Below, piece after piece: positions 10,253 to 41,959 of a stretch of 64,000 bases of DNA (position 1 is its first letter; each line of letters starts with the position of its first letter). Location of the stretch: assembly GCA_042408215.1 (NCBI GenBank), contig JAYFMW010000028.1, positions 160,001 to 224,000 on the forward strand, read 5' to 3'. A program made the translations under genes and the position numbers. The notes beneath the pieces were generated by a model, which saw only the letters and a program-made list of their open reading frames with translations, was not told the DNA's origin and did no database searches. Origin of the DNA: Microcoleus sp. (GTDB lineage: Bacteria > Cyanobacteriota > Cyanobacteriia > Cyanobacteriales > Microcoleaceae).

Positions 10253-10523
10253 TATACAATCGCTGTCAGAGCCCCGACTTCTGAAGCTGCTGCCAGACAA
10301 AAAAAACCCGGCCATCGCTGGCTGGGGTAGAAAATTATCAGGGTGCATCTACTAATATCTGCAAGTATAGCACAACTTTGTGGGGTGTCACCCCTCATGG
10401 GTGACACCACCCATAAATTTTAATGAGAATAAGTTATAATTAAGCTGGTCAATGATTAATAAAACTTGTATGTTCGATAGTTTTGTTCCTGCTAATTTAA
10501 GATCTAAGATTTAGAATAAATCA

Positions 10524-34122: not shown

Positions 34123-36132
34123 CTAGGACTGAAGATAAGTGTACTGACTGAGACTCCGCTCGTAATTTTGCAGCAAAAGTTGAGCCTCAGAAAGAGTAAT
34201 TTTATTTTGCTGCAACGCTTCCTCTGTCTGACGGCGGATGCTTTCAATCAAACTTTCTGCATCGTACTGTACATAGCTGAGGACTTCTTTCATCGTGTCA
34301 CCTTTCACAACGTGTTCGATCTGATAGCCAGAAGGCGTTAGCTGAATGTGAACTGCATTTGCATCGCCGAATAAGTTGTGAAGGTTGCCCATAATTTCTT
34401 GATAAGCACCTCCCAAAAATAGCGCCAAATAGTAAGGTTCTCCGGGTTTGAGACTGTGCAGTTCCAAAACAGACTTCACATCTCGCAAATCGATAAATTG
34501 GTCGATTTTGCCATCGCTATCGCAGGTGAGATCGGCTAAAGTTCCTCGCTGAGTCGGTTCTTCATCCAGTCGGTTAATTGGCATAATTGGGAACAATTGG
34601 TTAATAGCCCAACTGTCGGGTACTGACTGGAAAACGGATAAGTTGATGTAATAAATGGAAGCCATCACTTTTTCTAAGTCTTCCAAATCCTCCGATACAT
34701 ATTCTTTTTGCCGCGCGATAGTCTGTATTTTATCGCAGCAAGCCCAGTACAACTGTTCGGTTTTAGCCCGTTCCGCAATTCCCAAATAGCCTAAGTTAAA
34801 TAAACTGATTGCTTCTTCCTTAAATTGGATAGCATCGTGATAGACTTCTTGGTAATTTTCTGGAGTAATAGATTGGTAGATTTCGTAGAGATTACGAGGA
34901 ATTTGGTGGGCGTTTTCGTCTACCGGTTCTGGTACTTCTCGGAGCACCTCGCTCGTACCGAGTACATCAAAAACTAACACTGATTGATGAGAAGCGATCG
35001 CCCGCCCGCTTTCGCTAATTAAAATTGGTACTGGCAATTTTCGCTCGTCGCAAGCATCTTTCACTCCCGCTACTACGTCGTTAGCGTAGTTCTGCATATT
35101 ATAATTTTTGGAAGCGTGGAAGTTAGTTTTAGAACCGTCGTAGTCAACGCCGAGTCCGCCACCGACGTCCAAGTAGTTCATATTAGCTCCCAATTTAGCT
35201 AATTCTACATAAATGTGACTGGCTTCTCGAATGGCTTCTTTGATCACGCTAATTGAGGAAATTTGAGAGCCGATGTGGAAGTGCAATAGTTGCAAACAAT
35301 CTAGCATTCCAGCTTTTTGAAGTTCGTCAACAGCCCGGATAATTTCAGGAATAGTCAAGCCAAATTTTGCCCGATCGCCCGTTGAGCCTCCCCAGCGGCC
35401 AACACCTGTGGTGCTGAGTTTTGCCCGCACTCCCAAAATCGGTTTAATTCCTAATGCAATGCTCGCTGCGATCGCCAGTTGCACTTCCTCAATTTGCTCT
35501 AGCACAATTACTGAAGTTTGCCCTAGTCGCTGTGCTAAAATTGCCGTTTCTATATATTGGCGGTCTTTGTAACCGTTGCAAATTAACAAAGCACCGGGGG
35601 TTGTTAAAGTCGCCAAAGCGATCATTAATTCCGGCTTAGAGCCGGCTTCGAGCCCGAAGTGGTGAGGTTGACCAAAACGCACCAAGTCTTGAATTAATTG
35701 TCGGTGCTGGTTGCATTTGACTGGAAAGACACCGCGATAGACATTTTTGTAATTATAGCGGGCGATCGCTCTGGCAAAACAAGAATTTAACCGCTCGATC
35801 CTGTCTTCCAAAATATCAGAAAATCGAATCAGCAGCGGCAGTGCCAAATTTCGCTGTTTCAGGGATTCCACCAGTTCGCACAAGTCGAGGGAACCGCCGC
35901 GATCGCCCTTGGGAGAGACAGTAACATTACCGGCGGCATTGATCGAGAAATACGGTTCGCCCCAACCTTGAATTCGGTACAGTTTCTCGCTATCTTCGAT
36001 CGTCCAAGATTTTTGTGGCAGTTGGGCAACAGTGGCTTCATCAGTTTCTGGTGTGGCTAAACTTGTGACTGTTGGTGGTTGAGTCGATAGCAGATCGAGA
36101 TCGGAGCTCGCAGCAGTGGTTGGGGAATTCAT
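34123..36132 (-). CDS. speA: Biosynthetic arginine decarboxylase
   Basis: VFPVKCNQ (PLP Lys), GLEAGSKPEL, LHFHIGSQ, DVGGGLGVDYDGS, DLTCDSDG and GAYQEIMGNLHNLFG motifs. Confidence 0.97.
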   Translation of the reverse strand: MNSPTTAASSDLDLLSTQPPTVTSLATPETDEATVAQLPQKSWTIEDSEKLYRIQGWGEPYFSINAAGNVTVSPKGDRGGSLDLCELVESLKQRNLALPLLIRFSDILEDRIERLNSCFARAIARYNYKNVYRGVFPVKCNQHRQLIQDLVRFGQPHHFGLEAGSKPELMIALATLTTPGALLICNGYKDRQYIETAILAQRLGQTSVIVLEQIEEVQLAIAASIALGIKPILGVRAKLSTTGVGRWGGSTGDRAKFGLTIPEIIRAVDELQKAGMLDCLQLLHFHIGSQISSISVIKEAIREASHIYVELAKLGANMNYLDVGGGLGVDYDGSKTNFHASKNYNMQNYANDVVAGVKDACDERKLPVPILISESGRAIASHQSVLVFDVLGTSEVLREVPEPVDENAHQIPRNLYEIYQSITPENYQEVYHDAIQFKEEAISLFNLGYLGIAERAKTEQLYWACCDKIQTIARQKEYVSEDLEDLEKVMASIYYINLSVFQSVPDSWAINQLFPIMPINRLDEEPTQRGTLADLTCDSDGKIDQFIDLRDVKSVLELHSLKPGEPYYLALFLGGAYQEIMGNLHNLFGDANAVHIQLTPSGYQIEHVVKGDTMKEVLSYVQYDAESLIESIRRQTEEALQQNKITLSEAQLLLQNYERSLSQYTYLQS

Positions 36133-36605
36133 AAAAACCTCACGGAAGTTTGGAAACCCAGCGGCTTGAGCCTAGGGAGGAAAAGCGACACGGGATGCTT
36201 TAGCATCCCTTGAATATTCTTAAAATCCATCAGAAAATTGGGCGGAGCGAAGCGCAGGGTTGAAACCCCGTCCTAAAAGGACGGCTTTGTTTGATTCGAT
36301 AAATTAGTTGCCTACCTCTTGCGAGGTGGAGGGGTATGGTTGCCCCTCCCTTGGAGATATGGTTGTCTCCATTTTTTCCCTTTCGGGTAATGTTCGCTTC
36401 GCCAATGTTATAAGAGCTTTTTACGCTGAAAGCACTGTTCCAGTGACCTTAGAACTGTTTAACTAGCAGCGACAGAGCAAGGGACTAGCGTCGCATCCCA
36501 GGGTGTCTTGACTCAAATAACGTAGTCAGCTAAGACTTAGGCTGGTCAGAATGGCTTGTTTGATTACTCTTGCAAGCCCCGTCCCTTAAGGGCGGGGTTC
36601 CTGAC
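36133..36605 (-). mobile_element. Non-autonomous IscB-type IS200/IS605 element (omega-RNA plus end hairpins, no ORF) inserted immediately before the speA ATG
   Basis: Starts GTCAGGAACCCCGCCCTTAAGGGACGGGG; contains end-type hairpins GCCGTCCTTTTAGGACGGGG and TTCCTCCCTAGGCTCAAGCCGCTGGGTTTCC; followed directly by ATGA. The right boundary is inferred. Confidence 0.75.
36378..36605 (-). ncRNA. HEARO / IscB omega-RNA scaffold
   Basis: Ordered HEARO-like blocks: GTCAG..hairpin..CTGACCAGCCTAAG, GACTACGTT, GACACC..GGATGC..GCTAGTCC..GCTCTG, TTAAACAG, ACAGTGC, AACATTGGCGAAGCGAACATTACC. Confidence 0.8.
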
Positions 36606-36787
36606 CTTGTCGGAAACCTCAAAATGACTGGTCGAATAGATAGTTTATCAAAAATTTGGGTTTCCTGATGTACTTGAAAATGCACTTGTTCTTTATAGGG
36701 CGATCAAGTAGGGGCGATCGAGCTGTGAGAAGTTCGATCGCCCGCGATAATTCATCCCCTTGGAAAAGTGAAAGTATCAAAAAAAGG

Positions 36788-38230
36788 CTAACCGAAAATC
36801 TCTTCCGGCGGCGCCATGTCAGCCCCCATAACCATTCCCCCATGACTGATAGACTTCTTCAAACCCGGTTTAGGCGCTGTTTCTTGGCGTTTCTGAGCCG
36901 GCGCAACAGACGGCGGTTTCACCTGGGTTTGGGGTACCGCCTGAGCCCCCGGCACAACGGGTTGCTGCGACAGCCAAGCCAAACCCCCCACCGCCCCAGC
37001 CATCAAAGCTGTGTAGCCCAGGTACAAATGCACCGGATGCATTTGAAACCCGTCCGTTGACGAGGAGTCGGAAACAGACAAATACGGGTTCACAATTTGA
37101 CTCGGCTCTGGCTTGGGTAAAGCATCCGCCATAGCATGGCCGTCTAGTCCTAAAGCGTCCCCGATCCGGCGGATAAAACCTCTCAGGTAAATATCTTGGG
37201 GCAATTTCTCGATTTCCCCATTTTCGATCGATTCGAGGTGGTGTAGCGGCACCAGAGTTTGATCGTGGAGTTGCTGGAGAGATAAGCAGCGAATTTGCCG
37301 TCCCTGGCGCAATTCTCTCCCCAACTCGCACAAGCAATCTTTCCGCTGTTGAACGGAAGGAGCTGCTGTCTCTTCAGGAGTGTTTTTCTGCCTCTTGGCG
37401 CTTCGACTTGGCTCAGCGACCCTATGACTTGGCTCAGCGACCCTATGACTTGGCTCAGCGACCCTATGACTTGGCTCAGCGACCCTATGACTTGGCTCTG
37501 TTACCCTATGACTTGGCTCAGCGACCCTATGACTTGGCTCAGCGACCCTATGACTTGGCTCAGCGACCCTATGACTTGGCTCAGCGACCCTATGACTTGG
37601 CTCTGTTACCCTATGACTTGGCTCTGTTACCCTATGACTTGGCTCTGTTACCGTATGACTTGGCTCTGTTACCGTATAGCCGAAGGAGCTTCCGGGAGCG
37701 ACTACAGCCAGGGGTGTAGCCAACGGACGCAGTGCCGGTGTCCCTACGGTTTCGTCTGTGGGCGGTTGTTTGCTTTTTTCTGAGGTGTCAGTATCTCGAT
37801 CGCGGTATGTTGTCAAAGAGTCAGTGTCAGATTTTATTTCCGGGGGCGATTCCAAAGTAGCGCTCTTGCGATCGAAGACAGCAGCAGGTAGAGGCGGTTG
37901 CAATTCTGTAACAGCCACGGCGGCGGGAATTCCCGCAGCGAAACTCTCTTTCGAGCATTGGAGTTCAGTTTTATTTTGTTTAGGAAGCCGCTGAAATGCC
38001 AGCTTGACTGCTTCTCTGCTAACAGCCCTAATTAAAATTTCCGCAGCCGAAGCAGCTTCGCCCAACATGGTTTGCAAGCTAGCTAGAGCGTGGCTGTAAG
38101 TGTCGCTACAGAGGAGTTCAGCTTCTATTTGACTGAGGACAGAGCGAAAACTTTCTTCAGAAAATTCAATAGTTCTATGATCTGTCACCCCAGTTGTTAC
38201 CAGAAGAGAGGCATCGGGTTTCAGTGCCAT
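36788..38230 (-). CDS. XRE/RodZ-like helix-turn-helix membrane protein with a 13 x 7-aa repeat insertion
   Basis: LGRELRQGRQ...SLQQL...T.V...HL.SIE.G....LP..IYLRGFIRRI..ALGLD, then a TM helix. Probable start ATG 38230. Confidence 0.8.
   Translation of the reverse strand: MALKPDASLLVTTGVTDHRTIEFSEESFRSVLSQIEAELLCSDTYSHALASLQTMLGEAASAAEILIRAVSREAVKLAFQRLPKQNKTELQCSKESFAAGIPAAVAVTELQPPLPAAVFDRKSATLESPPEIKSDTDSLTTYRDRDTDTSEKSKQPPTDETVGTPALRPLATPLAVVAPGSSFGYTVTEPSHTVTEPSHRVTEPSHRVTEPSHRVAEPSHRVAEPSHRVAEPSHRVAEPSHRVTEPSHRVAEPSHRVAEPSHRVAEPSHRVAEPSRSAKRQKNTPEETAAPSVQQRKDCLCELGRELRQGRQIRCLSLQQLHDQTLVPLHHLESIENGEIEKLPQDIYLRGFIRRIGDALGLDGHAMADALPKPEPSQIVNPYLSVSDSSSTDGFQMHPVHLYLGYTALMAGAVGGLAWLSQQPVVPGAQAVPQTQVKPPSVAPAQKRQETAPKPGLKKSISHGGMVMGADMAPPEEIFG
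37403..37675. repeat. 13 x 21 bp coding tandem repeat (RV(A/T)EPSH)
   Basis: Unit GACTTGGCTCAGCGACCCTAT with a CTGTTACC variant. Confidence 0.95.
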
Positions 38231-41877: not shown

Positions 41878-41959
41878 TGGGCGGGGAGAGAATCGAACTC
41901 TCATACCTTTCGGTGTCAGATTTTGAGTCTGATGCGTCTACCAATTTCGCCACCCGCCC
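41878..41959 (-). tRNA. trnL: tRNA-Leu(CAA)
   Basis: GGGCGGG acceptor stem, D-loop GGCGAAATTGGTAGACGC, anticodon arm TCAGA-CTCAAAA-TCTGA, long variable arm, GAGAGTTCGATTCTCTC T-arm; CCA not encoded. Confidence 0.95.

Follow-up and report, generated by a model that had tools for sequence, protein, structure and literature searches.

Cyanobacterial ISC elements, for example ISC1-1_MA of Microcystis aeruginosa, have a 5'-GTCA end and insert at an N/ATGA target (here and below the slash marks the junction), and ISC elements have one terminus in common with IS605-type elements and are mobilized in trans by Y1 transposases (Kapitonov, Makarova and Koonin, 2016, PMC4810608). The part of that paper covered here also names short gene-less derivatives of the IS200/IS605 family, the palindrome-associated transposable elements (PATEs) and others resembling miniature inverted-repeat transposable elements (MITEs), and its description of ISC elements makes no mention of start codons. 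IscB elements are in addition co-oriented with upstream genes, and IscB and TnpA use the same target-adjacent motif (TAM), according to the part consulted of Meers et al. (bioRxiv 10.1101/2023.03.14.532601). In a 64,000-nt stretch of Microcoleus sp. contig JAYFMW010000028.1 (the window, to which the coordinates below refer), a gene-less 473-nt element with the omega-RNA scaffold of an IscB system lies exactly between the native leader of speA and the speA ATG. It is a recent, strain-specific, non-autonomous ISC (IS200/IS605) mini-transposon that has lost iscB, and we consider it likely that its scaffold is read through together with speA and that the bias of its relatives toward start codons arises by retention.

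The speA element is like ISC1-1_MA in its cyanobacterial host, its 5'-GTCA end, its location immediately 5' of ATGA without target duplication, its IS605-type terminus and its presumed mobilization in trans by a Y1 transposase, and a first-pass annotation of the window, made from the letters alone, had already recognized ATGA as a described IscB-element target. Unlike the published ISC elements, which encode IscB, it has no iscB, is 473 nt long and carries two tandem termini. With the ISGst IscB element of Geobacillus stearothermophilus (Meers et al.) it has in common a guide taken from the 5' flank, a TAM common to transposase and nuclease, co-orientation, a guide plus TAM that equal the donor joint and, by covariance model, the RNA family; unlike ISGst it lacks a nuclease in cis, and its TAM is ATGA (TCAT on the other strand) as against TTCAT for GstIscB. 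Its relatives in this genome that also lack iscB, hereafter orphans, are like PATEs and MITEs in being short, gene-less and multi-copy, in having their parent's termini and in depending on a transposase in trans, and unlike them in systematically keeping a complete, structurally conserved guide-RNA scaffold; they could therefore borrow a nuclease as well as a transposase. Stand-alone omega-RNA loci were reportedly found with IscB systems in 2021, and the orphans resemble these in having no adjacent iscB in an IscB-rich genome.

Taken alone, the element is ordinary: both the transposon from which it derives by loss of the gene and the guide RNA that it carries are known. Nor is there novelty in either family (RNA or transposon), in ATGA as a target, in the existence of derivatives without genes or in their running in the direction of host genes. 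The new aspects are how large the family of orphan scaffolds is, that it sits at start codons of core genes that are intact, and that the termini are composite. A literature search found no paper on an association with start codons, although it did not extend to Weinberg 2009, to Altae-Tran 2021 or to the supplements of the two papers cited above, which may bear on the question.

Identity, boundaries and age of the speA insertion

The open reading frame (ORF) at 34123-36132 (minus strand) is an intact biosynthetic arginine decarboxylase of 669 aa, as indicated by three Pfam domains and by an NCBIfam match (NF003763, 928.9 bits, aligned from residue 39). Its junction ATG is the sole in-frame ATG, GTG or TTG within the first 60 codons, so ATGA at 36129-36132 (minus strand) is both the transposon target, or TAM, and the speA start codon plus one base. 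The element occupies 36133-36605 (minus strand), and its first 219 nt (36387-36605, minus strand) give an Rfam cmscan match to HEARO (RF02033) of 167.6 bits against a gathering score of 83, which covers the complete model (1-211 of 211) without truncation and is the best of the 70 matches in the genome. On the minus strand the leader ends ...CAGTCATTTTGAGGTTTCCGACAAG and gives way to GTCAGGAACCCC..., and 473 nt later ...CTTCCGTGAGGTTTTT is followed by ATGAATTCC. Apart from chance frames the sense strand of the element has no ORF of at least 60 aa, and what lies downstream is not the iscB that a HEARO RNA directly precedes but speA, which starts 473 nt after the first base of the scaffold. The first-pass annotation had proposed an orphan IscB omega-RNA element wedged between the speA leader and a start codon at the junction, and the covariance match, the exact boundaries and the absence of a rival start codon uphold it on each point.

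The boundaries are supported from two directions. Within the family, aligned sister copies define a sharp 5' edge, GTCAGG at 36605, and these copies end ...GAGGYNTTT/ATGA and diverge beyond that point. At the locus, speA start regions were taken from 30 related genomes; among the 19 same-genus loci, 2 gave no BLAST hit and 17 could be aligned, and all 17 have an empty site that reads ...TTTTGAGGTTTCCGACAAG/ATGA with no insert. The two closest relatives, whose SpeA N-termini are 99% and 98% identical to the one studied here, contain exactly the same 20-nt flank directly abutting ATGA, and contigs from three of four environmental RNA-library runs (three studies) join 36132 to 36606 and so omit exactly 473 nt. 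It is because of these empty sites and this contig joint that the element can be equated with 36133-36605 and the insertion called young. The speA insertion is therefore young, strain-specific, without target duplication and immediately 5' of ATGA; such target-specific insertion, together with the many copies, their common sharp ends and their polymorphic presence among strains, is what characterizes the ISC/IS605 elements. An empty allele had been predicted in the first-pass annotation and exists, although in the 17 relatives it continues ...ggtttccgacaag/ATGAGT where this genome has ATGAAT.

The native leader next to the element, ATTTTGAGGTTTCCGACAAG (36606-36625, minus strand), would be the omega-RNA guide if transcription entered from the speA promoter. 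As had been anticipated, this 20-nt leader plus ATGA equals the empty site of the closest relatives; it occurs nowhere else in the assembly, which fits the donor-joint targeting model. The rest of the intergenic region upstream (36626-36787, minus strand) is the presumed promoter region, and a TAAACT box about 35 nt before the insertion point is kept in 16 of 17 relatives (read by eye).

Comparison of copies revealed that the insert, described earlier as about 473 bp without an ORF, is exactly 473 nt long and composite rather than a single unit. From about nt 17 to 232 it is 85.6% identical to the same positions of an IscB-bearing master copy (C8). Beyond the end of the Rfam model, nt 220-317 (36289-36386, minus strand) form four extra GC-rich hairpins, CCCGAAAGGG, GGAGAC..GTCTCC, GGAGGGG..CCCCTCC and CCTCGCAAGAGG, at the place where iscB begins in full-length copies. 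There follows a first terminus, class A (nt 318-375; 36231-36288, minus strand), with a hairpin of GCCGTCC and GGACGG and then ...CCCAATTTTCTG, which also ends 13 other orphan copies directly at /ATGA. An internal ATGG (nt 376-379; 36227-36230, minus strand) is a degenerate copy of the ATGA target, since a sister copy (C30:230k) has ATGA here. The second terminus, class C (nt 380-473; 36133-36226, minus strand), is 94 nt long, is present in 5 copies in the genome and ends GTGAGGTTTTT; it contains a predicted subterminal hairpin of GGGATGC and GCATCCC at 36209-36192, GAGG at 36141-36138 and five T before the ATG. Over the final 55-65 nt of the master ISC element, its sister copies are 75-79% identical to that master. 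The same arrangement of class A plus class C recurs in four or five copies in the genome and therefore moves as one unit, and the tandem termini would be a plausible product of stacking at one site, because insertion 5' of ATGA keeps the target intact. Both hairpin pairs are conserved between copies, and the 3' module folds no better than its shuffles as either RNA or DNA (z about -0.8); a predicted small hairpin that would sequester the GAGG was set aside as unreliable.

Two observations concern the parts of the element elsewhere. A copy in a close relative (L091, G008:C362:5959-6275) is 99.7% identical to nt 1-316 of the speA element and then runs into unrelated sequence, so that it is either a truncated copy or a progenitor from before the addition of termini. 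The class-A hairpin terminus, AAAGCCGTCC..GGACGGGG..CCCAATTTTCTG, is also found at about 40 further sites in other IS605-type repeat families (e.g. G000:C6:637199-637253 and C10:46071-46130), some copies of which have an extra insert, CTGCGCTTCGCTCCGCC. The flank at these sites is ATAA, GTAA or GTGA, which means that more than one target specificity is served by a single type of terminus; with such flanks in place of ATGA, these elements were rejected as a control for start-codon bias.

Orphan scaffolds, IscB and transposase in the genome

The 7.36-Mb assembly contains 70 HEARO matches, 64 of them above the family cut-off. The proposal that IscB could act in trans had called for a genomic source of nuclease and transposase, and both are at hand in intact form: there are 31 matches to RRXRR (IscB), 18 in stop-free open frames of at least 400 aa, 19 IscB-bearing HEARO copies by our own ORF criterion, and 20 matches to Y1 transposase (PF01797), at least 11 of which are full-length and free of stops. 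The copies that carry iscB begin GTCAACCA, GCTATCC or GACTTACT. A further 45 copies, the subfamily of the speA element, begin with a sequence like GTCAGKAA and comprise 39 gene-less orphans (335-580 nt), 3 copies with degraded iscB, 1 fragment and 2 intact elements of 1593 nt, each with a 423-aa IscB that has RRXRR and HNH domains. Most orphans have a terminus designated class B and correspond to this 1593-nt master minus about nt 235-1510; they are therefore MITE- or PATE-like derivatives that keep the scaffold and the far terminus.

The orphan scaffolds are structurally intact. They give the highest HEARO scores in the genome, and although the mean pairwise identity of the 39 is 74%, 96.5% of the cells in 52 RNAalifold consensus pairs, a structure derived from the same 39-scaffold alignment, are canonical; 25 of these 52 pairs have changes on both sides, and shifted controls are 33-38% canonical. 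These properties bear on one alternative, namely that the speA element is a neutral relic, an orphan omega-RNA that no IscB uses and that is tolerated as junk wherever an insert of 350-580 nt spares a gene, in a group of bacteria in which initiation needs little Shine-Dalgarno (SD) pairing. Such tolerance would fit the weak SD pairing of background genes (mean -2.3 kcal/mol) and the lack of an SD in most element termini. It would not account for structures and covariance scores of this quality, for insertions that are young and polymorphic, or for the positions of the orphans, because tolerance alone predicts about 11% of copies at start codons and no strand preference, compared with the 72-79% observed. 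We therefore consider a neutral relic decidedly improbable.

Position of the elements relative to gene starts

Orphan junctions were set by BLAST coverage; three, at which another ATGA followed within a few bases, were adjusted on visual inspection. Every one of the 39 orphans is directly followed by /ATGA. The first-pass annotation had suggested asking how often this junction is a gene's ATG, which proves to be the case for most sister copies: the junction ATG opens an ORF of at least 50 aa in 29 orphans and of 33-34 aa in 2 more (31/39 at a threshold of 30 aa), and in the other 8 the frame closes within 25 codons. A stricter count, which accepts ORFs of at least 100 aa or with family support, places 28/39 at a gene start. 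Besides speA there are 30 such junction ORFs, and 19 have an NCBIfam match; in 11 the alignment begins within the first ten residues and the first six positions of the profile, namely in ribosomal protein S16 (rpsP), EF-G (fusA), ChlB, PntA, DAHP synthase, PcxA, Psb27, PetL, PetM, an HpsJ-like and an epimerase-like protein, and further matches are to LepB, PilT, PBP1A, IsiD, SLATT, a radical-SAM protein, an anti-sigma antagonist and Usp.

The same junction is seen beyond the GTCAGKAA-like orphans. Three gene-less copies of other 5' subfamilies end /ATGA; for two of them this is the start of an ORF, and for the third an ORF begins 36 nt farther downstream. ATGA also follows each of the 13 full-length copies whose end could be defined, 7 of them at ORFs of at least 50 aa. 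Of 22 loci examined in other genomes, 15 had recognizable termini; /ATGA is the junction in 13 of the 15 and opens an ORF of at least 51 aa in 12 of these. One orphan in another genome (L096, G016:C72) ends /GTGA, and its GTG opens a 265-aa frame, so GTGA may be a variant target that doubles as a start codon.

How far this exceeds expectation depends on which ATGA sites are regarded as available. The genome has 50,012 ATGA sites, 23.6% of which open any ORF of at least 50 aa. Counting only sites where insertion would not disrupt a gene, namely 12,814 outside genes and about 1,552 at start codons, the expected share at starts is 10.8%, and the observed counts are far above it (binomial p=3e-23 for 31/39 and 4e-19 for 28/39), with the caveat that this null and those that follow use crude longest-ORF gene calls. 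When the comparison is limited to ATGA in the sense orientation within 100 nt upstream of a start, the expected start-codon share rises to 39% (p=3e-7 for 31/39); within 50 nt it is 56% (p=0.002), and within 30 nt it is 70%, against which the share is not significantly raised (p=0.13 for 31/39; 0.48 for 28/39). It is thus not the codon itself that calls for an explanation but the restriction of the elements to the end of leaders in the sense orientation. The robust finding is that they lie within the final few tens of bases of such leaders, most often at the start codon itself.

This confinement could reside in insertion, if the Y1 transposase, or the single-stranded DNA state that it needs, favored ATGA at translation starts, with no role for IscB or transcription. 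A bias of this kind would agree with the strict ATGA flank of all copies, with the very recent speA and rpsP insertions, which are absent from the closest relatives and already at start codons, and with elements of different termini having hit the same pilT start codon in two species. Yet no target motif beyond ATGA was found in the 8 nt upstream or 5 nt downstream, where a weak A/T excess at +6 (p=0.007, uncorrected) was the only signal, and target recognition in IS608-type transposition is limited to 4-5 nt. In addition, not every copy is at a gene start, the exceptions being 8 of the 39 orphans and 6 of the 13 full-length copies. We regard insertion bias as an unlikely cause of the pattern.

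The rpsP insertion is absent from 16/16 congeners. The element at chlB (G000:C30:473031-473404, L148) is absent from 17/18 same-genus relatives and from 6/6 loci of other genera among those listed, and is held in common with one non-sister species (G013, C613, L152), where the element is 95.5% identical and chlB 92-96% identical; it is missing in nearer relatives whose chlB is 98-100% identical. No conversion tract shared with that species was detected around the chlB insertion, the flanks being as diverged as in other species. This distribution points to repeated precise loss or lateral spread and not to fixation.

At pilT, the start codon is occupied in this genome by a class-B element of 438 nt (G000:C17:257534-257971) and in a second species by a class-A element of 396 nt (L100, G018) with a different 5' subtype, which suggests independent strikes on one site. 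At G000:C6:209966-211487, two same-strand orphans 1.1 kb apart flank a 225-aa ORF; the second reaches from the stop codon of this ORF, at which it directly begins, to the start of a 399-aa ORF and thus fills an operon-internal junction.

Translation, transcription and retention

The first-pass annotation had proposed that the element supplies a replacement ribosome-binding site, GAGG 5 nt before the ATG. For the speA copy this prediction is sustained: the GAGG of the element end lies 5 nt from the ATG, whereas that of the native leader lies 11 nt from the ATG in the empty allele, and the predicted pairing with the anti-SD sequence is equivalent (-6.9 vs -6.8 kcal/mol); the core of the anti-SD string used was located in three 16S-like loci. 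Whether GAGG is conserved at the end, as that annotation had asked, is answered in the negative for the family: only the rare speA terminus class and a few variants have it. In the 31 start-codon copies the element ends are predicted to pair worse than the leaders they displaced (mean -0.97 vs -3.24 kcal/mol, Wilcoxon p=0.003), and class-A and most class-B ends have no SD at all. Self-compensation, in so far as pairing energies predict it, is thus real for the terminus class at speA and is no family rule.

These data also bear on whether the element is a mobile leader that serves its host, a portable 5' untranslated region (UTR) or expression module that provides a promoter, ribosome-binding site or regulatory RNA and is kept for host benefit; a domesticated leader controlling polyamine synthesis, as raised in the first-pass annotation, would be one form of it. 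The better spacing of GAGG in the speA copy, the AAGGGGG found 7 nt before the ATG at the ends of the full-length GTCAACCA subfamily and the presence of highly expressed genes among the targets would suit such a role. The weaker anti-SD pairing of element ends overall, the absence of any promoter-like site found in the element and the lack of a common function among target genes argue against it, and there is no conservation at a locus, since the speA insert is missing from every alignable congener and the rpsP insert from 16 of 16. A host-serving leader is therefore highly improbable, and the domesticated polyamine leader, tried as a candidate and rejected on the same locus comparison, is contradicted by a strain-specific insertion that even relatives with 98-99% identical SpeA N-termini lack.

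With regard to transcription, a consensus scan of 35900-37100 returned 0 promoter-like sites at its thresholds (0.8 expected), which is no proof against an internal promoter, and the only sense-strand terminator-like site in the same interval lies at the end of the upstream gene. With no such terminator inside the element, read-through into speA is possible. In four environmental RNA-library runs (X1, X4, X5 and X6), contigs matching the HEARO core (window 36360-36620) had summed depths of hundreds to thousands, and neighboring speA had a depth of 3-11; the core depth derives from many copies and organisms and therefore cannot be read as expression of the speA copy. It hints that HEARO scaffolds are abundant RNAs in these libraries.

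In the retention explanation that we favor, a Y1 TnpA acting in trans would have inserted the element without duplication immediately 5' of the ATGA that starts speA. Because the 5' edge is sharp and the guide position falls outside the element, a guided scaffold could come only from a host promoter: the element would have no promoter of its own at its 5' edge, and scaffold plus 20-nt leader guide would be transcribed only by read-through from the speA promoter. Meers et al. describe an equivalent logic for IscB elements. The same transcript would run on into speA, with translation starting behind the last terminus (GAGG, five U, AUG). Since guide plus ATGA equals the empty allele, IscB from full-length copies could cut empty alleles, on other chromosome copies or after excision, and thereby preserve or spread the insertion. 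The position at start codons would then follow from three causes acting together: the elements target ATGA, gene-breaking insertions are purged, and copies are retained only if they lie near a gene start and are read in the sense direction from a host promoter.

Several points, in addition to the 30-nt null and the crude gene calls described above, weigh against this explanation. No environmental RNA-library contig bridges the junction between element and speA. The covariation of the orphan scaffolds could date from IscB-bearing ancestors, and compatibility is assumed, given that identity between the speA scaffold and the two IscB-bearing masters of its 5' subfamily is no more than about 86%. 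The insertion is also unlikely to be cost-free, because the SD of most termini is weaker than that of the displaced leader.

A more far-reaching version, doubtful as it stands, would view these IscB-less omega-RNA mini-transposons as drive cassettes that together make up a guild and reside in the 5' leaders of mRNAs from housekeeping genes, each using the promoter of the host gene, a guide from the ribosome-binding-site region and the start codon as TAM. IscB would convert empty alleles, within the cell or after DNA uptake, and its binding to leaders could modulate the translation of dozens of core genes (rpsP, fusA, chlB, petL, petM, speA). The host genus is one of filamentous, probably polyploid cyanobacteria. 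The distribution of the chlB insertion fits either lateral homing, as in this version, or precise loss on repeated occasions.

The context is what makes an otherwise ordinary element noteworthy: the genome has about 19 intact IscB nucleases, and about four-fifths of its some 40 orphans are placed precisely at the start codon of an intact gene, in many cases an essential or highly expressed one. If their scaffolds are co-transcribed, dozens of host mRNAs begin with a functional guide RNA that targets the uninterrupted allele of their own gene. If true, this would be a natural setting in which to test the transposon-retention (homing) model of IscB, the borrowing of nucleases by non-autonomous elements and possible effects of RNA-guided nucleases on host translation. 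For annotation, such inserts part promoters and ribosome-binding sites from start codons and can mislead the prediction of start sites and UTRs.

Two other RNA features of the window lie apart from the speA locus. An Rfam match to NsiR1, a nitrogen stress-induced small RNA, at 10298-10354 (minus strand, 43.3 bits) fits a heterocyst-forming cyanobacterium, and an 82-nt tRNA with a long variable arm, also an Rfam match, is found at 41878-41959 (minus strand).

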